64,000 nucleotides of DNA from an uncultured delta proteobacterium (GCA_963801935.1 CAWDHA010000011.1:25923-89922); one strand, 5' to 3'. Numbered from the stretch's first letter, positions 5,924-61,977 are shown. The notes: generated by a model from the sequence alone, not told the origin. Program-made: numbers and translations.

Positions 5924-7030
5924 TCATTTCATAAATTCTTTTTGGAAATAATCGCCCCATGCGTCGCTTTTGTCTTGAATAATCTCCGGGCTCAGATAAT
6001 GCGCCTTTTTGATTTTTCCGCCGCCCGGCTTGAGGTCCACATGCAGAGCCGGCATGTCCGGATGCGATGGCAGGTAATTGGCGAGCTGCACGACTTTCTG
6101 GCCTTTCCTCGAAAGTAGAAAGTCGAGGAATAGCATTGCCGCATGCGGCCGCGGCGCATGGCGCGCCAAGCCTACGGTATTAATGGTCGCGGTGACGGGG
6201 TCGAGCGGCTGCCACTCGACCGGCGCGCCGGCTTGCTTGCTGATGAAAGCATGGTGATTAAAAATCTGAATCGCAATGGGATATTCGCCGGCGATCACCA
6301 GGTCGAGTATCTGGCGCGCGCTGGCGGTGCTTTTTGCGATGTTCTGCTGTTTTAATCTTTGCAGATAAGCTTTGCCTTTTTCTTCGCCCATTGTCAGAAG
6401 AATGTTGCCGATGAATTGCGGCGCGCCGGAACCGCTGCTGGTGGACCACATCATCTGACCCTTCCAGCGCGGATGAAGCAGATCTTCATAGGTTTTTGGC
6501 AGTTCGGCGGCTTTCACGGCGCGCGTGTTGTAACCCAGGGTCATGAAATAAACGTTGGTGCTGCCCCAGAAACCTTTAGCATCCTTCAGCTCGGGCGGAT
6601 ACTCAGCCAGATGGGGTGAATGAAAACGCTGCATATAGCCGGCTTGTTTGACCATTGTAGTTGCGGCGCTGCCGCTGATGAGATCGACGTCGTAGCGCTT
6701 CGCTTGATATTCGGCCAGGACTCTCTGGGCGATGCGCTCCGAGTTGCCGCGAAAGAACTCCACTTGGACAAAAGGATAGTCCTTTTCAAACGCTTGCTTC
6801 AGCGGCCGCACCACTTGATCGACGATCAGGCCGGTGTAGAACATGACTTTGCCTTCTTTTTTTGCGCCCTCGATTAAAACTTTTTCGCGGTTGGCAGCTT
6901 TAAGCAGCGCGACCTCTTCGACGCCCGCCGCTAATGATACGCCTTTGCTGGACAATACGGCCGCCATGAAGAAGGCCAATGCCATCATTTCAAACTTTAC
7001 GCTGAACGGACCGCCTCGCCTTGTCATCAC
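5924..7030 (-). CDS. extracellular solute-binding protein family 1 (Fe3+/polyamine-type periplasmic SBP), orphan
   Basis: Signal peptide MMALAFFMAAVLSS... then EGAKKEGKVMFYTG... (typical class-II SBP start). Paralogous to 31792..32841 and 36377..37510. No permease or ATPase adjacent. True start may be the internal Met at 6988. Confidence 0.65.
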   Translation of the reverse strand: MMTRRGGPFSVKFEMMALAFFMAAVLSSKGVSLAAGVEEVALLKAANREKVLIEGAKKEGKVMFYTGLIVDQVVRPLKQAFEKDYPFVQVEFFRGNSERIAQRVLAEYQAKRYDVDLISGSAATTMVKQAGYMQRFHSPHLAEYPPELKDAKGFWGSTNVYFMTLGYNTRAVKAAELPKTYEDLLHPRWKGQMMWSTSSGSGAPQFIGNILLTMGEEKGKAYLQRLKQQNIAKSTASARQILDLVIAGEYPIAIQIFNHHAFISKQAGAPVEWQPLDPVTATINTVGLARHAPRPHAAMLFLDFLLSRKGQKVVQLANYLPSHPDMPALHVDLKPGGGKIKKAHYLSPEIIQDKSDAWGDYFQKEFMK

Positions 7031-7496: not shown

Positions 7497-8483
7497 TTAA
7501 CTTCTAAAATGCAGTGCATGCGCGGCATTGCCACCGAGAATCAACTCGCGTTCCACTTCCGGCAGGTCCAGTTGCATGACCTTTGCCACCGGCTCGAAGT
7601 CTCCCATAGCCATGGGATAATCCGTGCCGATCACGACTCGGTCCGCACCGACGACTGTAACGAGATACTGCAAAGCCGCGACGGAATGAACAACGGTGTC
7701 GAAATACATTTGATTTAAATACGCCGACGGTTTCTGAGGAACAATCTTTTTTAGCTCTGGCCGCAAGCCGTAGGAGTGATCGAGCCGCCAGATATTGAAT
7801 GCCAGCAGTCCGCCGCCGTGGGATAAGCACAGACGCAAGTTCGGATACTTCTCGAACATCCCCTTCAAGATCATGCGCTCGACCATCAGGGTCGTCCGAA
7901 AAGTGAACTGCAGAACGTTGCCGAGAATCGGTGACAGCGGGTCGTCGGCATCCAGACCACCTTCGAGCGGATGGACAAACAGCAACATGTCTAACTCGTG
8001 AACCGTATCAAAAAAAGCCTCGAACGCCGGATCGTCGAGCGGTTTGTCGCCGACGGCGTTGCCGATCTCCAAACCTTTGAGCCCCATGGCTTTTGCTTCC
8101 CGGGCAATGGCGATGGATTCGCCAACGCTCTGTAGCGGCACGCTGCCGAAACCAACAAAGCGATCGGGATGCTTTTCGACAATTTCTTGAATCGCTTGAT
8201 TCTGCTTGCGCGAAAAGTGCGCGGCCACCGCCGACTCTTCCCAATAGAAAAGCAGAATCGGCGACGGCGAAATGGCTTGCATGTCGATGCCCATCGCATC
8301 GAGCGCTTTGATCCGCGCCGCTGGATCGTACGCGCCGGCGCCGAGCCCGGGTCGATGGCCGATCTGCGAGGTAACCGACAGTTTGCCCTGGTCCAATACT
8401 AACTTTGGCTTACGGTCTTCGTATTTGCCGGGGTTCTGCAAAGCTTCGATGGGGAAAAAATGCGAGTGGAGATCGATGTTCAC
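7497..8483 (-). CDS. amidohydrolase family 2 (ACMSD-like)
   Basis: MNIDLHSHFFP (HxH metal motif), ...VIGTDYPM..., 328 aa. Confidence 0.8.
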   Translation of the reverse strand: MNIDLHSHFFPIEALQNPGKYEDRKPKLVLDQGKLSVTSQIGHRPGLGAGAYDPAARIKALDAMGIDMQAISPSPILLFYWEESAVAAHFSRKQNQAIQEIVEKHPDRFVGFGSVPLQSVGESIAIAREAKAMGLKGLEIGNAVGDKPLDDPAFEAFFDTVHELDMLLFVHPLEGGLDADDPLSPILGNVLQFTFRTTLMVERMILKGMFEKYPNLRLCLSHGGGLLAFNIWRLDHSYGLRPELKKIVPQKPSAYLNQMYFDTVVHSVAALQYLVTVVGADRVVIGTDYPMAMGDFEPVAKVMQLDLPEVERELILGGNAAHALHFRS

Positions 8484-8641: not shown

Positions 8642-8688
8642 GGCGGAACGGCGCGGGAATCATGTAACGAATTTCAGCGACACGGCTG

Positions 8689-9744
8689 CTAGTTCTCGAG
8701 GATTTTTCGCACCCGTTCCACGACGTCGGCAGGCTGGTTTACCGCCTCGCGCGCCATGCTTTGCATTTCGTCGGCGGATACCGGGTCTAGATCGTAACGG
8801 CGCTTTTTAACTTCTTCAACAAACTCAGGATCCCGGAGGGTCTTCGCGAAGGCTTCGCGCTGCGCGCGCGCAAGCTCCGGTGCCATGCCCGGCGGCGCCA
8901 CCATGGGGCGGCCGAACCCGCCCGCGGCGAGGATCGCCGCCGCCACGCGCCGCGACGCCTCGGGCGTCCGCTGTTGGTCCATCAGCTCATAAAGGGTTGG
9001 CACCTCGGCCAGTCGCGGATCACGTTTGCGGCCGGTTTGAATGAGGCTTTTTACAAAACCTGTCTTGAACCAGGTTCTTGTGGGTTCCCGCGCGATAAAG
9101 CTGCCGAGGTCGAAGGCCCGGCAGTGGAGCTCGCCGCGTTCAACGGCAAGATCGATTTCCGCGCCGCTCTGATATCCGGTGACCGTCTTGAATTTTAGCC
9201 CGAGGGTTTCTTCGATGACTCTGGGAACAATCACGCCCGTGGCGCCCGTGCCTGCGCCGCCGCAGCGCGGCGGCTCGGTTGCGCGGCGGATATCGTCTAA
9301 AGTCTTGTATGGACTGTCGCTTCTCATGTAGAGCTGCCCCTCCAACCGCTCCGGCGAGCCGATCCAGGTAAACTTCTGCCAGTCGAACTTGACGCTGTCG
9401 CGTCCCAGCAATTGATCGAGATACGCTCCCGCCGAGAGCGCCCCCAGTGTGAGCCCATCCGGCTTGGCGATGCTGTACATATAATTCGCTGCGACGATGG
9501 AGTTGGCGCCCGGCATGTTTTGCAGGATTACCGCCGGCTCGCCGGCCAAATGCCGGCCGAGGTATTGGGCGATCAGACGCGCCCAGAGATCGATGCCGCC
9601 TCCGGTACTGGTACCGATCACGATCTTGATTGTTTTGCCTTTGAAATGAGCGTCGCTCTGCGCCTGTAGAGTTGCGCTGCAAATGAGGTGCGTTAAGAGC
9701 ACCGGCAAAACAACCACGACTGTCGCGCTGCGAAATTTGCTCAT
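8689..9744 (-). CDS. Bug-family (TctC-like) tripartite tricarboxylate transporter substrate-binding protein, orphan
   Basis: Signal peptide, then ...GKTIKIVIGTSTGGGIDLWARLIAQYL... and ...IVAANYMYSIAKPDGLT..., canonical Bug/TctC motifs. No tctA/tctB nearby. Confidence 0.8.
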   Translation of the reverse strand: MSKFRSATVVVVLPVLLTHLICSATLQAQSDAHFKGKTIKIVIGTSTGGGIDLWARLIAQYLGRHLAGEPAVILQNMPGANSIVAANYMYSIAKPDGLTLGALSAGAYLDQLLGRDSVKFDWQKFTWIGSPERLEGQLYMRSDSPYKTLDDIRRATEPPRCGGAGTGATGVIVPRVIEETLGLKFKTVTGYQSGAEIDLAVERGELHCRAFDLGSFIAREPTRTWFKTGFVKSLIQTGRKRDPRLAEVPTLYELMDQQRTPEASRRVAAAILAAGGFGRPMVAPPGMAPELARAQREAFAKTLRDPEFVEEVKKRRYDLDPVSADEMQSMAREAVNQPADVVERVRKILEN

Positions 9745-9816: not shown

Positions 9817-11031
9817 TCACGGTATGTTCCGCGCCTTGCGCACGCTGGCGATCAGCGAAGTGCGCAACAAAAACTCCTTGTGTTTTTTCGGATCCTCGGC
9901 CGTGGCGCAGAGCTCATCAAAGCGCGCCTGGCGCGCTTCTGGCGCGCGCTCTTCGAGTCGCTGCTTATTGAGAATCGTTTGCTCCTGGACGAATTCGATA
10001 TTCAAGGTGCGCCGCCTGCGTGTGTAGCGGTCGAGCAACGACTGATCGGCCTGCCGCGTCACGACTTGATGAAGCGTATCTACCAGTTCCATCGCGTCGT
10101 GAATACCGCCATTGAGACCCAAGCCGCCAACCGAGTTGTTTACGTGAGCCGAGTCGCCGGCAAGAAAGACCCTGCCTTGGCGAAAAGTAGCCGCAACTCG
10201 CTGGTGCACCTTGTAGAGATTACGATGGACGACATCAAACGGCCGCTGTAAAGGGAACACACGCTGCAGCCGCGTGCAAGCGGACTCGTCGCCCAAGGCG
10301 TCTTGATCGCTTTCTTCTACTCGCGTCGGGAAGACCGCGCGCCACCGCCCCTTGCCGTCATCGCCGGCGACTTTGAAGAGATTGGTCCATTCATTCGGAT
10401 CCGCCAGATAGTTACGATAGCAGCAACCGGGTAAAAGCTCCTGGAAATCGTCCAACGTCGTCAGCACCAGGAATCGCTCCGGCCAGGTGAAGCCTTCGAA
10501 TCCGATGTCGAGTGACTTGCGTGTGGCGCTGCGGCCGCCGTCGGCGCCGATCATCCACTCGCCTTGAAACGCTTCGCTGCCGTTCGGGCCGTGGGCGGAC
10601 ACCATCACGCGATCCGCGTTTTGCTCTACTCCCGTTACTTGAGTCGAGAACCGCACAAGCGCATCAGGAAAACTCTTGAGCCGCTCGATGCCCATGCGCG
10701 CAAGTTTGTGTTGCTCGGTCTGAACCACAAATGGATAAGGTGTTTCATCGCGCAATACCTCGTGGTCGAATTCAACGATTCGTTTGCGCGCCGGCTTATC
10801 CCAAAACTGGAAATAACGCGCCACCAGGCCTGCGCCGATAAATCGGTCAATCAGGCCGACCCGGGCTATCATCTCGAGGGTTGAAGGATGAGTCGTCGCT
10901 GCGCGCGGCTTGTCGTCAATTTGCTTCTCGGCTTCCAACAAAGTCACGGCGAAGCCCTCCTGCGCGCAGGCAAGCGCTGCAACCACGCCCACTGGACCCG
11001 CGCCGGCGATAATAATCCGAGTCTTGGTCAA
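9817..11031 (-). CDS. FAD-dependent aromatic-ring monooxygenase (UbiH/salicylate-hydroxylase class)
   Basis: N-terminal IIIAGAGPVGVVAALACAQEGFAVTLLE (GxGxxG Rossmann). ...GDSAHVNNSVGGLGLNGGIHDA... (DG/GD FAD motifs). Confidence 0.8.
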   Translation of the reverse strand: MTKTRIIIAGAGPVGVVAALACAQEGFAVTLLEAEKQIDDKPRAATTHPSTLEMIARVGLIDRFIGAGLVARYFQFWDKPARKRIVEFDHEVLRDETPYPFVVQTEQHKLARMGIERLKSFPDALVRFSTQVTGVEQNADRVMVSAHGPNGSEAFQGEWMIGADGGRSATRKSLDIGFEGFTWPERFLVLTTLDDFQELLPGCCYRNYLADPNEWTNLFKVAGDDGKGRWRAVFPTRVEESDQDALGDESACTRLQRVFPLQRPFDVVHRNLYKVHQRVAATFRQGRVFLAGDSAHVNNSVGGLGLNGGIHDAMELVDTLHQVVTRQADQSLLDRYTRRRRTLNIEFVQEQTILNKQRLEERAPEARQARFDELCATAEDPKKHKEFLLRTSLIASVRKARNIP

Positions 11032-11379: not shown

Positions 11380-12666
11380 TTGGAAGACCAATCTACAAGC
11401 TCCCCTGCCCGAGGAGTTGCCGGCGAAGCATCTGCAAGCGCGTCGCCGCGCTTTCGCTTCAGGATGTTTGCCTCTCTGCGCCACGTTGATTATCGTTATC
11501 TCTGGAGCGGCACCTTGATGATGAGCGCCGGCCAGTGGGTCCAGCAAGTTACCCTGGGGTGGTTGCTCTACGACCTGACAGGCAATTCCTTACTGCTCGG
11601 CGCGCTCAACGGCTTGCGCGCTTTGCCCTTCTTAGTCACCGGGCCGATGGCCGGCGTCGCCGCGGACCGTATGAATCGCCGCAGATTGCTGCTCAACACC
11701 CAGTGGGTGCTTATCGTTACAGCGCTGCTCATGGGCGTGCTGGTCGCTTCGCCGTATTTGCACGTGTGGCACATCTTCGTTTTCACTTTGATCACCGGCG
11801 TGGCGTGGACCATCACCGAGCCCGTGCGTATGAGCATGATCCCCAGTGTGGTGCCGAAGGAAGACATGGTCAACGCCATCGCGCTCAATTCCGGTGGCTT
11901 TAACTTGATGAAAGTCCTCGGCCCGGCCCTGGGTGGCGCGCTGATTGCGGTGTTCGGCGCGGCCGAAAACTTCTTCATCCAGGCTCTCGCTTATGTGGGC
12001 GTGCTGGTCATGATCTACCTCATGTACATTCCGCCGCACCGCGCCGACGCCAAGCGCTCCTCGGCGATGGCAAATCTAAAAGAAGGGTTTTCCTACGTGT
12101 GGTCGACACCCGCCGTATTGGCGCTAATGGCGCTGGCTTATGTTCCCCGAGTGTTCGCTGTGCCATATCAGACACTCATGCCGGTGTTTCAAAAAGACGT
12201 GTTGCAAGTGGGCCCTGAAGGTCTCGGAATGTTGATGGCGGCGCCGGGACTGGGCGCGGTTATCGCAGTGCTCACGATGGCGTGGCTTGGTGACGGCTTA
12301 AAACGTCACGGCCTGATGTTGGTGGTCAGCATCTGCGTCCTGGGCTTTTTTCTGATTGTGTTCTCGCAACTCAAATCATTGCCGCTCGCGCTAATCGTGC
12401 TCGTGATTGCCGGCATGTTTCAGATGTTTTTTCTCGCCAGTACCGCGACGATGATCCAGCTCCTGGTGCCTGACGAATTGCGTGGGCGGGTGATGAGCCT
12501 TTATATGCTCGACCGCGGCTTTATGCCGGCGGGCGCGTTATTTGCCGGCGCCGCGGCGCACTTCATCGGCGCGCCGATGACGGTGGCAATGATGGGCGCC
12601 CTGGTCATTGTTTTCACTTTGATTGTCGCGTGGCGCATACCGGCCATCCGTACTCTGGAATGCTAG
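11380..12666 (+). CDS. MFS transporter
   Basis: 12 predicted TM helices. The DRMNRRRLLL loop 2-3 motif (MFS signature D-R-x-G-R-R). Start could be the internal Met ~11464. Confidence 0.75.
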   Translation: MEDQSTSSPARGVAGEASASASPRFRFRMFASLRHVDYRYLWSGTLMMSAGQWVQQVTLGWLLYDLTGNSLLLGALNGLRALPFLVTGPMAGVAADRMNRRRLLLNTQWVLIVTALLMGVLVASPYLHVWHIFVFTLITGVAWTITEPVRMSMIPSVVPKEDMVNAIALNSGGFNLMKVLGPALGGALIAVFGAAENFFIQALAYVGVLVMIYLMYIPPHRADAKRSSAMANLKEGFSYVWSTPAVLALMALAYVPRVFAVPYQTLMPVFQKDVLQVGPEGLGMLMAAPGLGAVIAVLTMAWLGDGLKRHGLMLVVSICVLGFFLIVFSQLKSLPLALIVLVIAGMFQMFFLASTATMIQLLVPDELRGRVMSLYMLDRGFMPAGALFAGAAAHFIGAPMTVAMMGALVIVFTLIVAWRIPAIRTLEC

Positions 12667-15044: not shown

Positions 15045-15168
15045 GATAGTGCCTCATGACCGCTTAGCTTGAATGTCGGTTCTGAGCGGCACCCTGTGTG
15101 AAAACTCCGCGCGACTTAGACGATTCACCAAGAGCGGGAGAGAAATTACAAGCATTGGAGGAGCCATC

Positions 15169-22047: not shown

Positions 22048-23028
22048 CTAGGGCCGCCACCCCGCCTTTGTCAATTCCTCGTCCGCTTTGGTCGCGAAGC
22101 TGAAATCATAAGCGCGCTCGGTGGGCACTATCTTGTCGACTTTGAGGACTTCGCGAACGATGTCGAGATCGTTCTTCTGGGTTTCTTCGTCGACCACGCC
22201 GTTAATCGCAAAAGTTCCGATCATGCCGTCGTAAGTCCGCGCCGCCAAGTCCCTGTTCAATTCGGAAAACTTGACCATGGTATCGATCGCGACCTCGCGA
22301 TTTTGCTTAACCAGGCGCAAGGCTTTGAGTAGCGCGCGCATGAACCCGTGCATCAGCTTGGGTTTTTGTTTGATGAACTGGTCGTTGGTTGCGATCGTCC
22401 CCCAGGAATTTTTGACTTCTTTGCCCAAGTACATGATTTCTTTCATACCCTGATCGAGAGCGGCAAAGCGTTCTTCCGAACTCAATAGGCCGCCGTCGAC
22501 AGTGCCCGACAGCAGCGCCGCAAGCCGCTGGCCCGGTGGCAAGGCAAGAAAAGTAACGTCTTTATTGGCGTCCAGCCCGTACTTGGGCGCGACCTTCCTG
22601 AACATAAACGTGGCGACCGCGGCGATGCCGGTGACGGCGATCTTTTTGTTCTTCAAATCTTTCAGGCTGCCATACTGCGGCCGTGCGATCAGCCATTGCA
22701 AAACCTGATCGTTGACGGCCAGCACCGTTTTCAACGGCGCATTGCCCTGGGTCACCGCGACCAGAGCGCTGCTGCCAGAGCCGGTGAAGTCCATTTCGCC
22801 GGCGAGCACGGCTTGCAACCCGGTCGTGGATGCCATGACGACGACATTGAGATCGATGCCTTCTTCCTTCATGTAGCCGCGCTCTTTGGCGAGCGGAAAG
22901 ATTATGAACTGAAAGGACTTGGACGGCAGGGTAACGTTGATCTTTTCCAGAGCCAAGCTCGATTTACCGGGAAAGAGCGCGCAGCTGAGCACCACGACCG
23001 TGACCATCATCATAATAATTTTTTTCAT
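22048..23028 (-). CDS. NMT1/THI5-like (SsuA/TauA-type) ABC substrate-binding protein, orphan
   Basis: Signal peptide MMMVTVVVLSCALF. ...KDLKNKKIAVTGIAAVATF... and ...ALLSGTVDGGLL..., NMT1-family motifs. No permease adjacent. Confidence 0.7.
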   Translation of the reverse strand: MKKIIMMMVTVVVLSCALFPGKSSLALEKINVTLPSKSFQFIIFPLAKERGYMKEEGIDLNVVVMASTTGLQAVLAGEMDFTGSGSSALVAVTQGNAPLKTVLAVNDQVLQWLIARPQYGSLKDLKNKKIAVTGIAAVATFMFRKVAPKYGLDANKDVTFLALPPGQRLAALLSGTVDGGLLSSEERFAALDQGMKEIMYLGKEVKNSWGTIATNDQFIKQKPKLMHGFMRALLKALRLVKQNREVAIDTMVKFSELNRDLAARTYDGMIGTFAINGVVDEETQKNDLDIVREVLKVDKIVPTERAYDFSFATKADEELTKAGWRP

Positions 23029-30607: not shown

Positions 30608-31636
30608 CTACTTCTCCAGAAGCGGTTTCATTCGCTCGACGACGTCCGCCGGCACGGTGCCAATCTCCCGTCCCAAAGCTTCGATCTCCTCTCCCGTCAT
30701 TAGACTTGGCTCCAGCCCCTTGCTTTTCGCGTCGGCGATGACCTCGGGATCCTTCATCATCTGGATGAATCCCTCGCGCAGAACCTTGAGCCGGTCGGCG
30801 GGAATTCCCGGCGGGCCGAAGAACGGCCGACCCATTTCATCGGGCAGGACAAATATTTTGGCTATCCGTCTGTAGAGTTCATTGACCTTCTGCTTATCCA
30901 TGAATTCCCACACGGTCGGAACATTCGGCAGATTGTGATGGCGCTGCTGTCCGCCTTGCGTGAGCGTCCGGACGAAACCAGTCTTGGCCCAAGTGCGCCC
31001 CGGTTCGCTGCCAAAGTACGCTTGCACGGATCCGCACCAGCACTGCGCCTCGCCTCGTTCGATGGCAAGATTGGCATCGGCGGCACCCTGATACCCGGGG
31101 ACCATGGTCAACTTGAGACTGAATGCATCCTGCAGCAGGCGCGGAAAATAATAGGCGGCGGTACCGAGACCCGTGGCGGCGCACTTGGGCGGCTCCAGCG
31201 CATCGCGGATTTCCAACAACGTCTTGTATGGAGTGTCGGCCCGGATATAAAAAATTCGATCGGTTTTCTCCGGCGAGCCGATCCAGCTGTATTTAAACCA
31301 GTCGAACTTTATTTCCTTGTGGCTGGAGAGCTGCTGGATATAAAGCCCGGGACTGACGACTCCAAGCGTCAAACCATCGGGCTTGGCAACTCCATAGACG
31401 TAGTTCGCCGCGATCATTGAGCCGCCGCCCGTCATATTCTGCACGATGAAGGTAGGGTTTCCGGCAACGTATTTGCTCAAATGGTGCGCGATAATCCTGG
31501 CCCATACGTCAAACGCGCCGCCGGCGGTAAAGCCGACACGGATGTTTACGGTTTGGCCCTGGTAAAAACGAGTTTGGGCCGCGAGATCGGTTTCCCAGAG
31601 CAGAGCAGTTAAGAGCGCCCACAATATAGTCTGCAT
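30608..31636 (-). CDS. Bug-family (TctC-like) substrate-binding protein, orphan
   Basis: Start 31636 with GGAGGAG RBS. ...GQTVNIRVGFTAGGAFDVWARIIAHHL... and ...MIAANYVYGVAKPDGLT.... Confidence 0.8.
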   Translation of the reverse strand: MQTILWALLTALLWETDLAAQTRFYQGQTVNIRVGFTAGGAFDVWARIIAHHLSKYVAGNPTFIVQNMTGGGSMIAANYVYGVAKPDGLTLGVVSPGLYIQQLSSHKEIKFDWFKYSWIGSPEKTDRIFYIRADTPYKTLLEIRDALEPPKCAATGLGTAAYYFPRLLQDAFSLKLTMVPGYQGAADANLAIERGEAQCWCGSVQAYFGSEPGRTWAKTGFVRTLTQGGQQRHHNLPNVPTVWEFMDKQKVNELYRRIAKIFVLPDEMGRPFFGPPGIPADRLKVLREGFIQMMKDPEVIADAKSKGLEPSLMTGEEIEALGREIGTVPADVVERMKPLLEK

Positions 31637-31791
31637 CTCGTGTTCTCCTCCGGACTTTTGCCGGACCGCGGTAATGTTTGTTCTGCGAAGCGAGGCGGCT
31701 CGGATAGGCTCAGCCGCGCGGCCGCGGTGCAATCTGCCTTTCTATAAAGAAATGGCTAGATCACCGTTGGGAAAACGATCGGGGCTCCCGC

Positions 31792-32841
31792 TCACTTCCG
31801 AATGATTTCTTTGAGCAGCTTGTGCCATCGTTCCAATGATTGCTCGTATTGAGCGAGCGTTCCCTCTTTCTCGGGATACCAGCGTTTGAACCCATAATCC
31901 TTACGGGCGCTGCCGAAGTCCAAGTCTTCGAGCAGCTTCTGCCCTTCGGGGCTCAAGAGAAAATCCGAAAAAAGGAGCGCCGCGTGCGGCCGCGGAGCAT
32001 TGGCGTATACCGCCGCTCCGCCTGCGCCGACGACGTTTATATCCATCGGCAGCCAGACCACCGGAGCGCCCTTCTTCGCGGCCACGTGCGTCGCGCTGTA
32101 AAATTGGCTGGGTGACGCGGGCACCTCCCCCGCCGCCACCAGCTGAGTCAAGGCGCTGCCGGCCATCATGTACGCCTTGATATTTTGCTCCTTCAACTTT
32201 TTGACAAACTCCTCGCCTTTGACTTTGACCATCGCGCCGATACTTCGAGCGCCGGTATCATCACCCGACAATCCGAGTTGACCGCGCAATACAGGTTTTA
32301 GCAGGCCGTCGAAATTTTTCGGCACGTCGGCGGCGCTCAAAAGATTGCTGTTATAGGCGAAGCCGATATAGGATTCGCGATCGATCGTCCAGTAAACCAG
32401 ATTCACCGGGGCTTTTTCTTTAGAGTCCTCGGGAAAAGCACTCAGGTGCGGTGAGGTGTAGGGAAGTAACAACTGGTTGTCGCGGAAAGTTAGCAGCCCG
32501 GGGAGCGTGGTTTCGATGGCGTCGGCGATATGGCGCCGGGCCTGGGCTTCATTGAGTAATCTCTGGACCAGCGCGGAAGATCCGGTGCGGTAAATTTCAA
32601 CTTTTACACCGGGATATTTAGCCTCGAACGTACCGGCGATTTGTTTGTTTTGCACAACCGCTAAAGTCGTATACCAGACCAGCTTGCCTTCGCGCTTGGC
32701 GCCTTCAACGAGCAGACGTTCGCGGTCCGGCCTATTATAGGCGGCGATCTCGGCCGCAGCCGAGGGCTTGCCGGACTGGCTCCGCGCCGGTGTAATTGCA
32801 ATAAGAATTAAGAGCAGCGCGGCGCCTAAAATCTTCATCAA
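31792..32841 (-). CDS. extracellular solute-binding protein family 1 (paralog), orphan
   Basis: Signal peptide MMKILGAALLLILIAITPARS. EGAKREGKLVWYTT.... ~35-40% identical to 5924..7030. Confidence 0.65.
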   Translation of the reverse strand: MMKILGAALLLILIAITPARSQSGKPSAAAEIAAYNRPDRERLLVEGAKREGKLVWYTTLAVVQNKQIAGTFEAKYPGVKVEIYRTGSSALVQRLLNEAQARRHIADAIETTLPGLLTFRDNQLLLPYTSPHLSAFPEDSKEKAPVNLVYWTIDRESYIGFAYNSNLLSAADVPKNFDGLLKPVLRGQLGLSGDDTGARSIGAMVKVKGEEFVKKLKEQNIKAYMMAGSALTQLVAAGEVPASPSQFYSATHVAAKKGAPVVWLPMDINVVGAGGAAVYANAPRPHAALLFSDFLLSPEGQKLLEDLDFGSARKDYGFKRWYPEKEGTLAQYEQSLERWHKLLKEIIRK

Positions 32842-32994
32842 ACTCCTTTGCCTTCTCAGAAGCGCCTATCGCGGGCCGGTCGATCGACGCGGCGGTGATT
32901 TTTGAAGTGCCCCGAAGATTAGAACAAAAGAATGGGAAGGTTTTTCAACAGATCTAGAGCTGCACACCTACGTCTTTCAAAAAGCCACGGTCCG

Positions 32995-34074
32995 TTAGAG
33001 CGCCGCGCGCGCCCGCTCAGTCGCCGTCACGTTCAAGCCGACAATAAACGACGGGTTCACGGTGCACAGTGTGTAGATTTCTTCCGGCGTGCAGCCAAAC
33101 GCCGCCATGTGGCCGCGCAGCAGACGGAGCGACTCGACCGAATTGGGAAACAGCGGTTCGCCGGCGTCCGAGGAGAGCGTACAGTGCTCGACCCCGACGG
33201 TGCGAATCGCCTTGTACATGCTTGCCGGATCGATGCCGAGAAGCGGCGACAACTCATCGTAGGTGAAGTTAATGCATAGGCCGGCAGCGGCCGCGTCTTT
33301 CATTTCTTCAATGGTCAAATTGACAAAGGGGCTGAAGGGATGATCGACGACGCCCTTTTTGAAGCCGATTTTTTGGCAGAACTCCGCCATTGCCTGGAAC
33401 TCCTGCTTTGTCGGATGGCCAAAAAAGATCGCCGCCTCGCGATCCTGCGCCATACGGAAAATCTCTTCGATCTCGGCCATGAGCCGGCCCTTGTCGTCGA
33501 GCAGGTAATGACCGTATTTGACCGACTCGGACCAGGACAGCGGTTCTGTATGGGCGTTTGGATCGGCGCTCTTGTCCCAAGCGCTGGGCTTGCCGCCCAC
33601 CATAGAGAGCGTATGGGCTGAGGTGTTGTTCGGCATCCAGAGCGCGATCACCCCTGCTTTCAGCATCTGGGCAGACCACGCCGGTTCGATCTTTGAGAGA
33701 AAACCCTGGGTGACCGAGCTGCCCGCCCAAACCTGCACCGGGGTTAGACCCTTCTCCTCGCACCAGGATTCCAGGGCGCTCCTCACGGCGTCAACCGCCG
33801 CCGCGGGATTCTTGCGTCCAACGATCGTCTTGTAGAGCAGACCCGTCATGGCGCTCTTCGAGGCGAGCTTGGCGACGCCGAGGGCATCCTGCTGCCCCTC
33901 GTGCGCATGGCAATGAATGTCGATCGCGTCCTCAACTCCAATCACGCGATCGAGCGACGGATCAATCGCCTGCTTGAAGCCGCGCCGCGCCGGATAAGAT
34001 GTGACCGAGCGCAGCGCGCTCGGAGTCGCGTAGTTTTGTTTTGTGTCGGCCATGGTCAAACCTCCGAAAACCAA
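32995..34074 (-). CDS. amidohydrolase-superfamily TIM-barrel metal-dependent hydrolase (subfamily unclear)
   Basis: AIDIHCHAHEG (HxH), ...AIFFGHP... and ...TLSSDAG... match amidohydrolase metal-ligand positions. Confidence 0.5.
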   Translation of the reverse strand: MVFGGLTMADTKQNYATPSALRSVTSYPARRGFKQAIDPSLDRVIGVEDAIDIHCHAHEGQQDALGVAKLASKSAMTGLLYKTIVGRKNPAAAVDAVRSALESWCEEKGLTPVQVWAGSSVTQGFLSKIEPAWSAQMLKAGVIALWMPNNTSAHTLSMVGGKPSAWDKSADPNAHTEPLSWSESVKYGHYLLDDKGRLMAEIEEIFRMAQDREAAIFFGHPTKQEFQAMAEFCQKIGFKKGVVDHPFSPFVNLTIEEMKDAAAAGLCINFTYDELSPLLGIDPASMYKAIRTVGVEHCTLSSDAGEPLFPNSVESLRLLRGHMAAFGCTPEEIYTLCTVNPSFIVGLNVTATERARAAL

Positions 34075-34300
34075 ATTGGTTGGACCATAGCGCGTCCGCG
34101 CGCAACCGGCAAACGTTTTCTCGTTCGACTATTACCCTCACGTGAAGCGATTTAGGTGTCCTTCGAAATCTTTTTTAGGTAACCTTCAAGCTGCTCCAAC
34201 AGCACATTAGCCCTGGTACCTTGAAGCGACTTGACCGTTCTCTAATCGCGTGGTTTAGACTCGCCACACGGTTCGAACTCCCGGGAAAGGCGATAACTCT

Positions 34301-34726
34301 ATGGCGACGACCCATATCCTGAAAATCGATGCGCTCCCGATTGTCGAGCGCGGCAACGGCATCCGCACGACTCCGCTGGTTACCAGGGAGCTCGGCGCCC
34401 AGCACATCACGAGCGGTCTGGCCCGTTTCCCGGCCGGCGCGAAAGTTCCGCTCCATTCGCACAACTGTGACGAGCAAGTGACGATCCTCGAAGGCGAGGC
34501 CGAGGCGGACGTCGACGGGCAGCGTCACCGCCTGCATCCTTTCGATACGACACTTATCCCCGCAGATAAGCCTCATCGCTTTATCAACGCCGGTGTGTCA
34601 CAGCTCACGATCCTCTGGATATATACTGGCGCCGAGGTGACCCGAACGTTCACTGAGACCGGCGAAACGGTTGCTCATCTTTCCGAACGTGATCTCGTGA
34701 GTGCGCCGGTTGCCAAAGCAAAATAA
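34301..34726 (+). CDS. cupin-domain protein
   Basis: ...ARFPAGAKVPLHSHNCDEQVTILEGEAEADVDG...PHRFIN... (cupin motifs 1 and 2). Confidence 0.7.
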   Translation: MATTHILKIDALPIVERGNGIRTTPLVTRELGAQHITSGLARFPAGAKVPLHSHNCDEQVTILEGEAEADVDGQRHRLHPFDTTLIPADKPHRFINAGVSQLTILWIYTGAEVTRTFTETGETVAHLSERDLVSAPVAKAK

Positions 34727-34826
34727 GCGATCGAGAGTTCACCGGCGTATCACCCGGGCAGATGTGGTCACTTTATGATGAGCCGAAGCTCGACCAACGG
34801 TTATCCTCCGGTCTATACTAATTGCT

Positions 34827-36302
34827 ATGAAACACGTGATTGATCCTGAAGGCCGGCGACTGCCGATCAAACTCGATACGACTTCGAACGGGGAATTTCT
34901 GCCGGTTCAGTTGGCGCCGGTTAACCGTGCCGCTAACCGCCTGGCACATCAGGCGGCGAGCCAAAATGCCAAGCGCCTGGGGCTCAGCCGCCGTAGTTTT
35001 CTTATTTCAGCTTGTGGCGCCGCCAGCACCTTGATCGCATTCAACGCGGTCAATGCCGCAGTGGAAAAGCGCGGCGGCTTCTTCGACCTTGAAGCTGAGG
35101 CTGCGCTCGAGCCCGAGCTCGCGCAAGCACAACTCGGCGGCAAGGGTGAGTTTATTTTCGACGTGCAGGGGCACTTCGTCGACCCGACCGGCGCCTGGGT
35201 GCAGCAAGCGCCCGCCGACGCATTCAAGTGGTCGCCCAAGACGAGCTGCGCATTGGCCGGCAAACCGGGAGCGCGCAGTTACCTCGATTGTCTTGGACCT
35301 GAAGAATTTGTCAAAGACGTGTTTCTCGACAGCGACACCGACATGATGGTGCTCTCTTTCGTGCCCTCGCGGCGAGATTCCGAACCGCTGACGATTGCCG
35401 CGGCGGATGCGGTGCGCCGGATCGTCGACCGCATGGAAGGCTCGCATCGCCTGCTGGTGCACGGCCGGGTGAATCCCAATCAACCGGGTGATCTCGAAGC
35501 GATGGACGAGCTGAAAGAGCTCTGGAAGGTGAGCGCCTGGAAGACCTACACGCAGTGGGGCGTGGACGGCAACGGCTTCTTTTTATCCGATAGTGTCGGA
35601 ACGCGCTTCATCGAGAAGGCACGCGCGCTCGGCATCAAGGTGATCTGCGTGCACAAGGGTTTGCCCTTCGGCAAGCACTCCTATGAGCACAGCCAGTGCA
35701 GCGACATCGGCGTCGTCGCCAAGCGCTACCCCGATGTGAGCTTTCTCGTCTATCACTCGGGTTTCGTCACCGGCGTACCGGAGCGTGCTTATACCGGACG
35801 CGGCGCCAGCGATGGCATCGACACGCTCATCCGCTCGCTGGTAGAAAACGACGTCAAACCGAACAGCAACGTCTATGCCGAGCTCGGCAGTACCTGGCGC
35901 TTCCTGATGCGCGATCCCGACAGCGCGGCACATGCGCTCGGCAAGCTCCTCAAATACTGCGGCGAGAATAACCTGCTCTGGGGCACCGATTCCATCTGGT
36001 ACGGCTCGCCGCAGGACCAGATCCAGGCGTTTCGCGTTTTCCAGATCTCGCCCGAGCTGCGCGCGCGCCACGGCTACCCGGAGCTCACGCCGGCGCTGCG
36101 CGCCAAGATCTTTGGGCTGAACGCCATCCGGCCCTACCGAATCAACGCCGACGAAGTGAAGAAGCGCGCCTCCAGCGATCATGTCGCGCGGCAACGGCTC
36201 GCCTACCGCGAACATCCCGAGCCGCACTATCTAACCTACGGGCCCAAGAGCCGGCGCCAATTCCTGAACCTGCTCGGTTGGAACGGCGGCTCGCGCGCCT
36301 AG
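34827..36302 (+). CDS. Tat-exported amidohydrolase family protein
   Basis: Twin-arginine signal SRRSFLISACGAAS. ...LWGTDSIWYGSP... amidohydrolase_2-like C-terminal region. Confidence 0.7.
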   Translation: MKHVIDPEGRRLPIKLDTTSNGEFLPVQLAPVNRAANRLAHQAASQNAKRLGLSRRSFLISACGAASTLIAFNAVNAAVEKRGGFFDLEAEAALEPELAQAQLGGKGEFIFDVQGHFVDPTGAWVQQAPADAFKWSPKTSCALAGKPGARSYLDCLGPEEFVKDVFLDSDTDMMVLSFVPSRRDSEPLTIAAADAVRRIVDRMEGSHRLLVHGRVNPNQPGDLEAMDELKELWKVSAWKTYTQWGVDGNGFFLSDSVGTRFIEKARALGIKVICVHKGLPFGKHSYEHSQCSDIGVVAKRYPDVSFLVYHSGFVTGVPERAYTGRGASDGIDTLIRSLVENDVKPNSNVYAELGSTWRFLMRDPDSAAHALGKLLKYCGENNLLWGTDSIWYGSPQDQIQAFRVFQISPELRARHGYPELTPALRAKIFGLNAIRPYRINADEVKKRASSDHVARQRLAYREHPEPHYLTYGPKSRRQFLNLLGWNGGSRA

Positions 36303-36376
36303 TGGAGTGCCGACTTCCTGAATTGACAAGATCCTCAAGCCGCCGATATAGTCCGGGCATCGCACGGAGGTGAACG

Positions 36377-37510
36377 ATGCAGTTGCTTCCACAAAGAACG
36401 GCCAGGCACCTGTTGTTGCTTGTTCTAATAAGCGCCGGGCTAATAAATGCGGTTGTTCTTGCCGCCGAACCCGGCGCTGCCCTGCTCAAATCGAAAAAAG
36501 ACGCGGAAGCCAAAGGCTATATTTTCGCCGCCAGCCATGACGAGATCGTCAGCCGGGCGAAGCAGGAAGGCAGACTTCGCGTTATCGTTTCTCTGGACGC
36601 TGGAATTCTCAAACGGCTGAGCGAAGGTTTTATGAAAAAGTATCCTTTCATCCAAGTGCAAGCGGACGAGATCCGCGGGATCGATGCTTACACGCGCCAG
36701 CTCCAGGAGTTAAAGGCAGGACTCGCTAAAGGGATCGATGTCAACGAAGTCGACTACGACTATTACAACGAGTACCTGCCGCACCTGAAAAAAGTCGATC
36801 TGTATGGAATGGTCGAGCAACGGGTGCTGCAAATGCCGCTTCAGATGGTGGACCCGATCAACAGGAACATCGTCGCTATCGGCAGTGGCATACAGGTTGT
36901 CGCTTATAACAAGAAGCTCATCGCAAGCGAGTCGGTCCCCAATACGTGGGAAGATTTCTTAAAGCCGGAACTCAAGGACAGAAAATTTGCGTTGGGAATT
37001 CGTCCCAAGGATGTGGCGGTCCTGGTGCCGGCATGGGGCATGGAAAAGACCCTCGATTTTGCGCGCAAGTTGTCGGCGCAGAAACCCATCTGGGTCAGTG
37101 GCGACACGCGTACGATCACCAGCATGCTCGCCGGTGAGTACACGCTTTTCTTCGGACCCAACTTCGACTCGGTTCTTAGAGCCAAAAACAAAGATAAGGC
37201 GGATGTGCTCGGCTACAAGCTCGTCGAACCGATCATGGTTCGGCTTAACGAGTCGGAAGGCATCTTGGCGTCAGCCGAACACCCGTACGCCGCGCTGCTC
37301 TGGCTGGAGTTCACGGCTTCCGTCGACGGCCAGAAAATACTCGAGGAGGGCGGGCCCTACGAGGGCTCGGTGTTTATTGCCGGAACCATTCAAGAGAAAT
37401 CTGTGCGCGGCAAGAAACAATCGCTGGTTGACTGGAGCCACTACTCAAGGATGCCGGAGTACATGAAGCGAGTCGTCGAGGCGTACGGTTTTCCGATGGC
37501 CGAAAAATAA
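36377..37510 (+). CDS. extracellular solute-binding protein family 1 (paralog), orphan
   Basis: Signal peptide LLLLVLISAGLINAVVLAA. AKQEGRLRVIVSLDAG.... Confidence 0.65.
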   Translation: MQLLPQRTARHLLLLVLISAGLINAVVLAAEPGAALLKSKKDAEAKGYIFAASHDEIVSRAKQEGRLRVIVSLDAGILKRLSEGFMKKYPFIQVQADEIRGIDAYTRQLQELKAGLAKGIDVNEVDYDYYNEYLPHLKKVDLYGMVEQRVLQMPLQMVDPINRNIVAIGSGIQVVAYNKKLIASESVPNTWEDFLKPELKDRKFALGIRPKDVAVLVPAWGMEKTLDFARKLSAQKPIWVSGDTRTITSMLAGEYTLFFGPNFDSVLRAKNKDKADVLGYKLVEPIMVRLNESEGILASAEHPYAALLWLEFTASVDGQKILEEGGPYEGSVFIAGTIQEKSVRGKKQSLVDWSHYSRMPEYMKRVVEAYGFPMAEK

Positions 37511-40960: not shown

Positions 40961-41077
40961 GGAACACTCTGCGACGGGCTCAGGGTGAGCGGAAGAAGGA
41001 AAAACCGTTCGAGGTGAGCCTGCTGAACCATGAACGGAAGTAACTGCATTTGCAGGTAGCTGATAGCTCATGTTTTC

Positions 41078-43020: not shown

Positions 43021-43049
43021 AGGCGCGGCCCTCCGCCGAAGGTTGGCCC

Positions 43050-58124: not shown

Positions 58125-58287
58125 TCTGGCAATCCTTCGTTGGGATCAGGCGCGATAGTTTCAAGGAAACAAAATGTTGTCAAGCAAGCTCGTTTGGAGT
58201 AAGTAGTCTCACCAGTGAGCGCCGCTAAGGATAGAAATGAGCTGTAGGGGCGCGATTCATCGCGCTTTCACACTTGGAGTTAGATTT

Positions 58288-59289
58288 ATGATCAGACCCG
58301 ATAGCCGTCTGAGTCTGCTTTTCTTGGCGGCGGGCTGTTTGTCTCTTGCCCTGGCGATTTCGGAAGCCGCGCAAGCCCAGGAGGGACGCGCCAAGTTAAG
58401 AATCTCCAACGCCGGTTTCACGATCACCGCGTTGCCGCTGTTGGCCGCCAAAGAGTGGGGTATGTTCAGCGCCAACGGCCTCGACATGGAAGTCATCCTC
58501 ATGCAATCGGCGCTGGTGCCGGCGGCGCTCACTCAAGGCGACATCGATTTTCAAGCAGGGGTGGGCCCGGCCTCAGTCAACGCGACCTTGAGCGGATTTG
58601 CCACCCGGGCCATCTGGTTTTCGTCCGACAAGATTTCTTACTGGCTGATGGCAAAGCCGCAATTTAAAACCCTCGACAGCCTGAAATCGAAGAAGATCTC
58701 GATCACCGGACTTGGTGGCACGGTTCATGTCGCGTTTAATCTGGCGCTCGAGAAACTCGGTGTCAGTGCCAAGGACTTTGTTCTGGTATCGATCGGCGGG
58801 CAACAGATACAACAGCTGATCTCACTGGAGTCGGGATATGTCGATGCCGCGCTGCTCTCTCCGCCGGTGACCTTCGGCGCCCAGAAAAAGGGATTTAACA
58901 AGCTGCTCGACGTCGGCGCGATGGTTGACATGCCCGGCGGCGGCTTGACCGCGCTGGTGAAAACGATTCAAGAACGACCGGCGGAAACCAAGCGGGTGAT
59001 TCGTTCGTTGCAGCGCGCTAAAGACGAGATTAAAAAATCCAAGCCCAAGACCCTGGACCTTATCGTCAAGCTACTCAGGATGGACAGGGAAGCGGCGAGC
59101 GAAACCTACGATCAGTTTCTGACGACTCTCAGCGGGAGCGGTATCCCCAGCCGCACCGGCATGGAAACACTGGTCAGATCGGTGCAGGCCCAAGGCCGCC
59201 ACGCCGACCGCAAAGTGAGCTTTCATGAAATTGCCGACGACCGGCTGGCGATGGAAGTGGCCAGAGAGTTGGGTTATAAGATTCCGTAA
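58288..59289 (+). CDS. NMT1/THI5-like ABC substrate-binding protein (paralog), orphan
   Basis: Signal peptide LLFLAAGCLSLALAISEAAQA. ...LKSKKISITGLGGTVHVAF.... Confidence 0.7.
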   Translation: MIRPDSRLSLLFLAAGCLSLALAISEAAQAQEGRAKLRISNAGFTITALPLLAAKEWGMFSANGLDMEVILMQSALVPAALTQGDIDFQAGVGPASVNATLSGFATRAIWFSSDKISYWLMAKPQFKTLDSLKSKKISITGLGGTVHVAFNLALEKLGVSAKDFVLVSIGGQQIQQLISLESGYVDAALLSPPVTFGAQKKGFNKLLDVGAMVDMPGGGLTALVKTIQERPAETKRVIRSLQRAKDEIKKSKPKTLDLIVKLLRMDREAASETYDQFLTTLSGSGIPSRTGMETLVRSVQAQGRHADRKVSFHEIADDRLAMEVARELGYKIP

Positions 59290-60948: not shown

Positions 60949-61977
60949 TTATTCCATTACTTTCTTCATCGACGCGATAACGTCGGCCGGCTGCGACATC
61001 ACCTCCCTCGCCAGTTCTTCGATTTCTTCTCCGGGAATCAACTCGGGCTCGAGGCCATGTTTTTTCGCCTCGGCGATGAGCTCGGGACTGGCCAGCGCCT
61101 TGGCGTAGGCGGCGCGCAAAATCTTGACATGATCGGCTGCTATGCCCGGGGGCCCGAACATCGGCGCGCTGCCGAACTCTCCCGAACCCAGCATGACCGT
61201 TACGAGCCGGCGATCTGCTTCGGCAGTCTTATATTGATCCATCAATTCACTGAAGAGCGGCGTATCCGATAAACGCGGGTCGCGTTTCTTGCCGCCTTGA
61301 ACCAAAACCCGCACCAGGTTCTTAGTGCGCCAGGTATGAAACGGCTCGCGGCCGAAAAAGACCTGAATGGTGAAAGCGCGGCATTGAACTTCACCGCGCT
61401 CGACCGCCAGTTCGATATCGGCGCCGCCCTGATAACCGGTCACCAGTTGAAACCTGGCGCCGATGGCTTGTTCCAGGAGCTTGGGCAAATAGTAGCCGGT
61501 ATTGCCCGTGCCGGTAACACCGCACTTGGGCGGAACCGTCGCCGTGCGCACGTCGTGAATGGTTCTGTACGGCGTATTGGCCCACATATAGAGCAGCGGC
61601 GCAGTCGGCGTCGTGCTGCCGACCCAGGTGAGTTTGGGCCACTCGAACTGCGCTTCTTTTTTCTTGAGGAGTTGTTCGAAATAGAGCGCCGCGTTGTTCA
61701 CACCGAGAGTCAAGCCATCCGGTTTCGCAACGCCATAGATATAATTCGTCGCCGTCATCGAGCCGGCGCCGGCCATGATCTGCACCACGGTAGCCGGATT
61801 ACCTGGAATATGCCTGGTTAGTTGCGGCGCAATCATGCGAGCCCACAAATCGTGGGCGCTGCCCGCTGGATAGCCGACAACCACTCTGATTGTTTTTCCC
61901 TGATAGTAAGGTGACTGCGCACCGGCACTCGAACAAATAAACGTTAGACCGAACAGCCACAAACCGCTTCGCTTCAT
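60949..61977 (-). CDS. Bug-family (TctC-like) substrate-binding protein, orphan
   Basis: GGAGG RBS. Signal peptide WLFGLTFICSSAGA. GKTIRVVVGYPAGSAHDLWARMIAPQL. Confidence 0.8.
   Translation of the reverse strand: MKRSGLWLFGLTFICSSAGAQSPYYQGKTIRVVVGYPAGSAHDLWARMIAPQLTRHIPGNPATVVQIMAGAGSMTATNYIYGVAKPDGLTLGVNNAALYFEQLLKKKEAQFEWPKLTWVGSTTPTAPLLYMWANTPYRTIHDVRTATVPPKCGVTGTGNTGYYLPKLLEQAIGARFQLVTGYQGGADIELAVERGEVQCRAFTIQVFFGREPFHTWRTKNLVRVLVQGGKKRDPRLSDTPLFSELMDQYKTAEADRRLVTVMLGSGEFGSAPMFGPPGIAADHVKILRAAYAKALASPELIAEAKKHGLEPELIPGEEIEELAREVMSQPADVIASMKKVME

Follow-up and report, generated by a model that had tools for sequence, protein, structure and literature searches.

Unlinked periplasmic binding-protein genes among catabolic genes in a 64-kb window of an uncultured delta proteobacterium, and their relation to neighbouring amidohydrolase genes

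Introduction

Does the repeated proximity of periplasmic binding-protein genes and amidohydrolase genes on one bacterial chromosome reflect functional modules, or are these genes neighbours for other reasons? The question is raised by a locus at positions 30608 to 37510 of a stretch of 64,000 nucleotides from an uncultured delta proteobacterium (GCA_963801935.1, CAWDHA010000011.1:25923-89922), which was analysed over its full length, is referred to below as the window and supplies the coordinates used throughout. In a preliminary description of this sequence it had been proposed that binding proteins of the TctC/Bug family, ATP-binding cassette (ABC) binding proteins of the FbpA/PhnS-like type (here SBP1) and amidohydrolases recur together as modules, with no membrane transporter component anywhere in the window. 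Most binding proteins of tripartite tricarboxylate transporters (TTT), TphC included, are encoded away from the membrane subunits and inside catabolic operons (PMC8556258), and expansions of orphan Bug genes with few TctAB have been documented in Bordetella and Rhodoplanes (PMC5994714, PMC9602780). From the analysis presented here we consider it probable that the window carries unlinked binding-protein genes of a kind found lineage-wide, scattered among catabolic genes, the products of which would deliver to shared translocators encoded elsewhere.

Results

Binding-protein genes and the absence of membrane partners in the window

The approximately 60 longest non-overlapping open reading frames (ORFs) of the window were scanned with Pfam, which bore out the gene inventory of the preliminary description, the gene at 32995-34074 that had been called amidohydrolase-like being a DUF6282 gene. 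Among the 57 ORFs of at least 100 amino acids (aa) there are eight binding-protein genes, namely three TctC/Bug, three SBP1 (matching SBP_bac_1, SBP_bac_6 and SBP_bac_11) and two NMT1 genes, and six genes counted here with the amidohydrolase superfamily, of which five belong to Amidohydro_2 (at 1109, 2388, 7497, 16572 and 34827) and one to DUF6282. All five Amidohydro_2 genes pass the gathering score of their model (PF04909) with 53-105 bits. An N-terminal signal peptide or hydrophobic leader was read in eight of the eight binding proteins; judged by eye, the Bug leaders end in AQ or AQS and the mature proteins are of about 300-320 aa, as in TctC/Bug. The gathering cut-off for TctC (PF03401) is 27 bits and Bug_60949 falls just under it, yet this protein is 47-48% identical to both other Bugs.

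TctA, TctB and BPD_transp_1 permeases are missing from the Pfam calls of the window, and tblastn of the window, seeded with FbpB-like, BPD_transp_1, OppC, TctA and TctB sequences of related loci, returned no hit in any frame. Nor does the window hold an importer-type ATPase, its sole ABC ATPase match being the nucleotide-binding domain of MacB, and the window SBP1 genes are thus not linked to a BPD_transp_1 permease and an ABC ATPase. By Pfam and tblastn together, the eight periplasmic binding proteins are unlinked from membrane components of the binding-protein-dependent kind across 64 kb, as had been described. The wider statement that there are no membrane transporter components is correct for TctA/TctB, ABC importer permeases and importer ATPases but too strong as worded, because two major facilitator superfamily (MFS) genes, the second of them fragmented (approximately 25259-26370), and a broken MacB are present.

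Conservation of the gene pairs in related loci

Across 122 other loci (1.18 Mb, 1043 ORFs) not one trio of TctC, SBP1 and amidohydrolase-type gene was found within three or four genes, where shuffling predicts 0.7 and 2.4, respectively. In the other Binatia loci binding proteins of all families adjoin an amidohydrolase-type gene in 19 of 90 cases against a shuffled expectation of 17.1, and a TctC gene lies next to an amidohydrolase-type gene in none of 17. A conserved module of Bug, SBP1 and amidohydrolase was accordingly not observed, and the systematic pairing with amidohydrolases proposed earlier is not supported when judged by the test that its proposer had named, namely co-occurrence of the pairs in other genomes.

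The neighbourhood of SBP1_31792 was examined in 30 loci from species-representative genomes and two from exact-protein look-ups, using our own ORF calls and hidden Markov models (HMMs) built from seeds, with Pfam spot checks. The DUF6282 gene is adjacent to the SBP1_31792 ortholog in 0 of 31 loci and a TctC gene lies within two genes of it in 0 of 31; the binding protein itself is found in more than 100 clusters at 74-90% identity. One clade of orthologs has an unrelated VOC-like enzyme as the upstream neighbour. A homolog of SBP1_31792 that is 77% identical is encoded beside a VOC-like enzyme on a 676-kb contig of Methylomirabilota (L002, 10001-11044), and an identity this high between phyla is a hint that individual receptor genes have been transferred horizontally. 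In Methylomirabilota the gene upstream of the SBP1 ortholog encodes a protein of 359 aa, which was suspected to be a DUF6282 ortholog and proved to be unrelated.

Locus L006 shares a colinear stretch of 17 kb with the window and carries orthologs of Bug_30608 (88%), the DUF6282 protein (88%), the cupin (85%, at the same position), the Tat-exported Amidohydro_2-like protein (Tat-AH, for twin-arginine translocation; 87%) and SBP1_36377 (85%). The interval that holds SBP1_31792 in the window (31701-33038) is replaced in L006 (7249-8055) by 806 bp of unrelated sequence; around these junctions neither meaningful direct or inverted repeats nor mobile-element marks were found that would be the signature of a mobile cassette. 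A second presence/absence interval separates window positions 36320-36369 from L006 positions 11493-12368, and SBP1_31792, CHRD, a GGDEF regulator with MerR, and an alpha/beta hydrolase are each present in one of the two sequences and absent from the other.

For the pair at 34827-37510, comprising Tat-AH and SBP1_36377, 80 loci from metagenomes, in which the Tat-AH ortholog is 70-89% identical, were examined together with L006 and L007. By tblastn the SBP1_36377 ortholog accompanies Tat-AH in one of these 82 loci, L006, in which the two genes are separated by a CHRD gene; in L113, which is syntenic as far as DnaJ, some 560 bp lie between Tat-AH and DnaJ, with no binding-protein gene in between. 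A binding protein of any family adjoins Tat-AH in nine of 71 loci, among them four NMT1 proteins of one clade and three SBP1s on the opposite strand. The pair, which had been listed as a further instance of the recurrent arrangement, is consequently not a recurrent one, and a putative promoter separates its genes. In the closest relatives the genes that do recur near Tat-AH are DUF6282 (L006, L055, L060) and the cupin (L006, L064). Proteins of approximately 540 aa downstream of Tat-AH orthologs were considered as SBP_bac_5 receptors and rejected, as their N-termini resemble FAD-linked/GMC oxidoreductases.

Cluster A, the group of genes around 5924-9744, was compared in the same manner. Orthologs of SBP1_5924 (85%), the luciferase-like oxidoreductase (85%) and CoA_transf_3 (84%) are kept together in L118, in which the AH_7497 ortholog (85%) is found at a distance of 6 kb, with a complete NMT1-type ABC transporter in between and no Bug nearby. 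In L122 and L125 only CoA_transf_3 is kept near the SBP1_5924 ortholog, CoA_transf_3/luciferase-like orthologs beside SBP1_5924 orthologs being 82-85% identical in L118, L122 and L123, and L123 holds orthologs of AH_1109, AH_2388, CoA_transf_3 and a deoxyhypusine-synthase-like gene in rearranged order. The SBP1_5924 neighbourhood is a loose, rearranged catabolic set whose constant member is the CoA-transferase and not one particular amidohydrolase.

L123 and L025 belong to GCA_050257635.1 (MAG262, labelled Chloroflexota), a genome with orthologs, at 75-89% identity, of the deoxyhypusine-synthase-like gene, AH_1109, AH_2388, CoA_transf_3 and SBP1_5924, and the MAG262 contig is a rearranged copy of the left end of the window at 75-89% identity. 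Besides L002, the case for transfer between phyla came mostly from MAG262. Either the taxonomic label or binning of MAG262 is doubtful or a large block was transferred, and the label was not relied on. At the left edge of the window itself (1-996, minus strand) a partial ORF matches deoxyhypusine synthase (PF01916), of which the L123 ortholog is 75% identical and 485 aa long.

Divergence of the paralogs

Pairwise BLAST showed the Bugs to be mutually 42-48% identical, SBP1_5924 and SBP1_31792 to be 34% identical, with SBP1_36377 at 24-27% to either, and the Amidohydro_2 paralogs to be 21-30% identical among themselves; between AH_7497 and the DUF6282 protein no BLAST similarity was detectable. 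For each of the genes, many independent assemblies contain an ortholog that is 75-90% identical, and the paralogs therefore long predate the genome of the window. Trio order differs as well, being SBP1-amidohydrolase-Bug in cluster A and Bug-SBP1-DUF6282 in the focal region. Judged by their divergence, the trios are not a duplicated module: the copies are old and divergent. The earlier statement that 5924-9744 and 30608-34074 have the same composition stands as far as the gene families present are concerned, but not for gene order, nor for AH_7497 and DUF6282 as counterparts.

Membrane partners and density of binding-protein genes in Binatia

The closest homologs of the window genes come from sources named Candidatus Binatia, or Deltaproteobacteria in older labels, and it is in Binatia that membrane partners were encountered. 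In the Binatia loci L028/L029 an SBP1_31792 ortholog (67% identical) is followed 30 nucleotides later, on the same strand, by a 581-aa protein with 12 transmembrane segments and two BPD_transp_1 domains, which is the FbpB/ThiP architecture. In L121 two receptors, an SBP1_5924 ortholog (80%) and a 63% paralog in tandem, directly precede one FbpB-like permease; this permease comes in two pieces of 441 and 152 aa and shares 46% identity with the L029 protein. No ATPase is adjacent to the permease in L028/L029 or in L121. Because in other Binatia their orthologs immediately precede fused permeases of the FbpB type, SBP1_31792 and SBP1_5924 are, by homology, genuine transporter receptors. A complete TctB-TctA-TctC set was found in Binatia locus L010, and from this set and the permease loci it follows that the lineage has membrane parts, though few.

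The 28 Binatia loci (401 kb) contain 53 non-focal binding-protein genes among approximately 325 ORFs, and binding proteins greatly outnumber the membrane subunits in these sampled loci (53 versus 9 TctA/BPD genes), the membrane parts being three TctA, six BPD_transp_1 and two ABC_tran. At 5-10 kb from the focal gene the share of binding proteins is still near 20% of ORFs, and in loci called independently with Pfam 18 of 124 non-focal genes encode binding proteins; many of the sampled loci are phylogenetically non-independent. Amidohydrolase-type genes make up approximately 10% of the ORFs in Binatia loci, and since both families are so dense, adjacency of a binding-protein gene and an amidohydrolase gene is common by chance.

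Features of the focal region, cluster A and neighbouring genes

The coordinates of the features are collected in Table 1. The DUF6282, SBP1_31792 and Bug_30608 genes of the focal region run divergently from the cupin, Tat-AH and SBP1_36377 genes. Bug_30608 starts with an ATG at 31636 that is preceded by GGAGGAG, and its predicted signal peptide is MQTILWALLTALLWETDLAAQ; AAGGAG precedes the SBP1_31792 start. The sigma-70-like promoter in front of SBP1_36377 is a consensus match only, the total of such hits in the region being at chance level. Cluster A consists, all on the minus strand, of the FAD_binding_3 monooxygenase, Bug_8689, AH_7497, SBP1_5924 and luciferase-like oxidoreductase genes, beyond which lie the CoA_transf_3 gene and then two further Amidohydro_2 genes.

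Table 1. Features of the focal region, cluster A and other transport-related genes of the window
Feature	Position	Strand	Evidence
CoA_transf_3	3569-4795	+	
Luciferase-like oxidoreductase	4893-5903	-	
SBP1_5924, FbpA/PhnS-like	5924..7030	-	SBP_bac_6/11/1 matches; weak PhnS2 similarity
AH_7497, ACMSD-like Amidohydro_2 decarboxylase (predicted)	7497..8483	-	PF04909 105.5 bits
Bug_8689, TctC family	8689..9744	-	PF03401 61.0 bits; signal peptide
FAD_binding_3 aromatic-type monooxygenase, head of cluster A	9817..11031	-	
Intact MFS transporter, divergent from cluster A	11380..12666	+	MFS_3 and MFS_1 matches; eight hydrophobic segments
NMT1/SsuA-like binding protein	22048..23028	-	Pfam; signal peptide
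Bug_30608, TctC family (TTT), 342 aa	30608..31636 (ORF 30608-31732)	-	PF03401 43.9 bits
SBP1_31792, FbpA/PhnS-like ABC binding protein, 348 aa	31792..32838 (ORF to 32841)	-	SBP_bac_1/8/11/6 matches; signal peptide
DUF6282 protein, cytoplasmic (predicted)	32995..34053 (ORF to 34074)	-	PF19799 71.9 bits; without signal peptide
Small cupin, 141 aa, upstream of Tat-AH	34301..34726	+	Cupin_2 60.4 bits
Tat-AH, Tat-exported Amidohydro_2-like protein (predicted), 491 aa	34827..36302	+	PF04909 over residues 218-439 only
Putative sigma-70-like promoter, TTGACA-18-TATAGT, in front of SBP1_36377	36323..36352	+	11/12 consensus matches
SBP1_36377, divergent FbpA-like, 377 aa	36377..37510	+	SBP_bac_6/11 matches; signal peptide
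NMT1-like binding protein	58237..59289	+	Pfam; signal peptide
Bug_60949, TctC family	60949..61977 (ORF to 62094)	-	PF03401 26.9 bits; signal peptide

Tat-AH has a SRRSFL twin-arginine motif, a hydrophobic stretch and a VNA-A site (LSRRSFLISACGAASTLIAFNAVNA-A, residues 53-78), with R55, R56 and F58 invariant in 18 homologs, and is accordingly predicted to be exported by the Tat route. Hardly any variation is seen in the approximately 50 residues that precede the twin-arginine motif, and this N-terminal extension may be a chaperone-binding leader. The family is very large and tightly conserved: homologs number more than 7900, and 120 clusters match across all 491 aa at 81-89% identity. The genes around Tat-AH differ greatly between loci, and the first-strand motif of the protein reads FDVQGH in place of HxH. 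An AlphaFold model of Tat-AH from an 18-sequence alignment reached a predicted local distance difference test score (pLDDT) of 47.7, too low for a fold search, and no sequence relative of Tat-AH or of the DUF6282 protein was found in the PDB. The latter matches DUF6282 only among Pfam models, a family which we take to belong to the amidohydrolase clan, and DIHCHAH (HxH) and SSDAG motifs are visible in its sequence. The match of AH_7497 to ACMSD structures extends over the whole protein (E 8e-51).

An Rfam scan of the whole window for riboswitches gave no match. Elsewhere in the window a 2Fe-2S ferredoxin domain is fused to an adenylate/guanylate cyclase catalytic domain (19161-20828), an uncommon architecture, and adjacent paralogous methyltransferases at 14226-15044 and 15073-15969 give the same weak hits, to DOT1 and N6_N4_Mtase-like models; one more methyltransferase gene is found at 23293-23919. 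The MacB region (39605-44227) is broken: its counterpart in L006 is an intact 645-aa MacB with separate OEP and MFP genes, whereas in the window an ABC domain and the start of PCD are encoded at 41955-43004 and an FtsX tail is fused in frame to OEP at 39605-41503, owing either to frameshifts or to sequencing indels. The region 48984-51600 contains a GT1 ORF of 239 aa and a GH130 ORF of 224 aa with partial domains, and these and the fragmented second MFS gene (25259-26370) fit either indel errors of a long-read assembly or gene decay.

Ligand and substrate hints

The closest solved structures to the Bugs are the terephthalate binders TphC (7NDR) and TBP (8HKA). Aromatic or pyridine carboxylates had been put forward as substrates in the preliminary description, and an aromatic acid is plausible for cluster A, because AH_7497 is ACMSD-like, its neighbour is the FAD_binding_3 monooxygenase and the nearest structures to the Bugs bind terephthalate. 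The nearest solved proteins to the SBP1s are of the FbpA type, pyridoxal-phosphate-binding (P5PA) and sugar-phosphate-binding (AfuA), and the sole hint at a named family is to the phosphonate-binding PhnS2, at 52-104 bits against a cut-off of 393; a small anionic molecule may therefore be the SBP1 ligand. A literature search on PDB entry 7F6E gave nothing relevant.

Discussion

On the reading favoured here, the window would be an ordinary piece of chromosome of a Candidatus Binatia soil bacterium, with very numerous receptors of three importer classes (TTT TctC/Bug, ABC FbpA/PhnS-like and ABC NMT1/SsuA-like). The receptor genes would be individually well conserved, encoded apart from their membrane partners and placed singly among equally numerous genes for cytoplasmic catabolic enzymes, such as Amidohydro_2 decarboxylases/hydratases, DUF6282 proteins, CoA-transferases, luciferase-like oxidoreductases, cupins and flavin monooxygenases. 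Each exported receptor would capture its own small, probably anionic, ligand in the periplasm and pass it on to a translocator encoded elsewhere, of which there would be few, each shared by several receptors; these may be TctAB in the case of the Bugs and, in that of the SBP1s, a fused permease of the FbpB type working with an ATPase encoded apart from it. Delivery of this kind is accepted for Bug proteins and has been described for TTT receptors at large and for TphC specifically (PMC8556258). A receptor inside a catabolic cluster, with which it may be co-regulated, would probably confer the uptake specificity of the pathway, as does tphC in the terephthalate operon; cluster A, with its flavin monooxygenase, Bug, ACMSD-like decarboxylase, SBP1, luciferase-like oxidoreductase and CoA-transferase, would be an example. 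The two trios would then be local, recently assembled arrangements, and neither a duplicated nor a conserved module.

Several observations weigh against this reading. When the order of the 57 window ORFs was shuffled, the two three-gene windows with a TctC, an SBP1 and an amidohydrolase-type gene compared with 0.10 expected (P=0.009), and the finding that three of three SBP1 genes adjoin an amidohydrolase-superfamily gene had P=0.006, both tests being post hoc. Some local functional linkage may thus exist within the window, as trios and adjacency are less likely than chance would produce (P about 0.005-0.01). Among the relatives, an amidohydrolase-superfamily gene adjoins the SBP1_31792 ortholog in 10 of 31 loci, always as a divergent 571-aa Amidohydro_3 gene of one syntenic clade (in the order PrpD, Amidohydro_3, SBP1_31792 ortholog, SNF2 helicase, Amidohydro_2, NMT1), and SBP1_5924 orthologs often have some Amidohydro_2 paralog close by (beside them in L118 and L123). 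The regions behind the density figures had been selected for the presence of a binding-protein or Tat-AH gene, so that the figures describe sampled regions and not whole genomes; together with the neighbour annotation they depend on our own crude ORF selection and seed-derived HMMs. Lastly, the sharing of translocators is drawn from relatives and from precedent, because no translocator gene of this genome was seen.

These adjacencies in the window and in the relatives are what would be expected if each SBP1 delivered or sensed the substrate of the adjacent enzyme, the trios being functional modules. Such dedicated partnerships appear improbable to us, as the specific pairs are unrepeated (no adjacent DUF6282 gene in 31 loci, a single SBP1_36377 ortholog in 82, and 6 kb between the AH_7497 and SBP1_5924 orthologs of L118), L006 retains the Bug and DUF6282 genes without SBP1_31792, and the partner family switches by clade (DUF6282, Amidohydro_3, VOC-like or none) while the binding protein stays 67-90% identical. 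Moreover, DUF6282 and AH_7497 are cytoplasmic by prediction whereas the binding proteins are periplasmic, and other loci have no overall enrichment of adjacency. A narrower version concerns Tat-AH and SBP1_36377, which are both predicted to be exported and are encoded on the same strand 74 nucleotides apart, the pair being kept in L006 despite the inserted CHRD gene; Tat-AH might convert a substrate in the periplasm and SBP1_36377 capture the product for uptake. This is a very unlikely arrangement for a pair that recurs in a single one of the 82 Tat-AH loci and is absent from the DnaJ-syntenic L113, the more so as the binding proteins adjacent to Tat-AH in nine of 71 loci are of other families or on the other strand, and a near-consensus promoter lies between the two genes.

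Orphan binding proteins could alternatively act as sensors which, once loaded with ligand, activate histidine kinases, chemoreceptors or cyclases, a role documented for some binding proteins, as in the case of BctC acting on BctE (PMC9602780, PMC5994714). The window does hold the ferredoxin-cyclase fusion and a response regulator (55451-55903), but by Pfam no sensor kinase or chemoreceptor adjoins any of its eight binding proteins, two of the SBP1s have orthologs in operons with ABC permeases, and the recurrent neighbours are catabolic enzymes, which leaves a sensory role with little likelihood. That the transporter genes were lost through misassembly, binning error or frameshifts is scarcely credible: the frameshift-like breaks in MacB, the second MFS, GT1 and GH130 would fit such an artefact or decay, but none of the eight binding-protein genes is broken, all being 75-90% identical to those of many independent assemblies, 17 kb are colinear with an independent 252-kb contig, no permease remnant exists in any frame of the window, and permeases are equally scarce on independent Binatia contigs.

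The reading of unlinked receptors that deliver to shared translocators is in line with known systems. As in the Bug expansions of Bordetella, Cupriavidus, Comamonas and Rhodoplanes, there are many exported TctC receptors and few TctAB, most receptors being encoded beside unrelated or catabolic genes, and sharing of translocators is the favoured explanation in those bacteria (PMC5994714, PMC9602780). The present case differs in its uncultured Binatia host and in that three families (TctC, FbpA/PhnS-like and NMT1), not TctC alone, are unlinked; the local density, approximately 15-20% of ORFs in sampled regions and not a whole-genome count, lies above the whole-genome figures of those bacteria. 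With TphC/TpiBA of Comamonas sp. E6 the window shares a receptor gene set in catabolic surroundings, the membrane subunits being elsewhere (PMC8556258), but the identity of the window Bugs to TphC is low (E 6e-14) and there is no dioxygenase operon or regulator. The SBP1s resemble the receptors of the FbpABC/AfuABC/PhnSTUV importers (cluster D) in their SBP_bac_1/6/11 matches and in orthologs that precede an FbpB-type fused double permease, but the window lacks a permease or ATPase and the SBP1s reach no equivalog model. Dispersed FbpA-type genes have a precedent in futA1, futA2, futB and futC of Synechocystis. With regard to the enzymes, AH_7497 is like the ACMSD/LigW-type decarboxylases in its full-length alignment and its place beside a flavin monooxygenase, whereas the other amidohydrolase-type genes are 21-30% identical to AH_7497 or not detectably similar, and the Pfam model is matched by Tat-AH in its C-terminal two thirds only, with FDVQGH for HxH.

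More speculatively, Binatia, and perhaps soil lineages that occur together with them, such as Methylomirabilota, might practise a hub-and-spoke form of uptake at unusual scale, although we hold this stronger proposition to be doubtful at present. Receptors of three importer families would then account for one gene in five to seven over long tracts, would be gained and lost independently as single-gene units that stay 70-90% identical across distant genomes, and would feed a few shared translocators, which would extend the Bug phenomenon to ABC receptors.

The main value of the present analysis is negative, in that the proposed module is unfit as a functional unit and as a basis for inferring the substrates of amidohydrolases. 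The region adds an example, from an uncultured phylum and spanning three receptor families, to a known phenomenon, the expansion of unlinked binding proteins; no description of a multi-family expansion of this kind in Binatia was found in the searchable literature. Binatia are abundant, uncultured soil bacteria, and our data suggest that they have undergone such an expansion. If whole-genome counts confirm it, annotation that counts transporters by operon would give a badly wrong picture of the substrates open to these organisms, and the well-conserved receptors would be good targets for ligand screens that show what Binatia eat. Should the hub-and-spoke proposition prove true, it would be the repertoire of receptors, and not the number of transporters, that chiefly sets the substrate range of these abundant soil bacteria.

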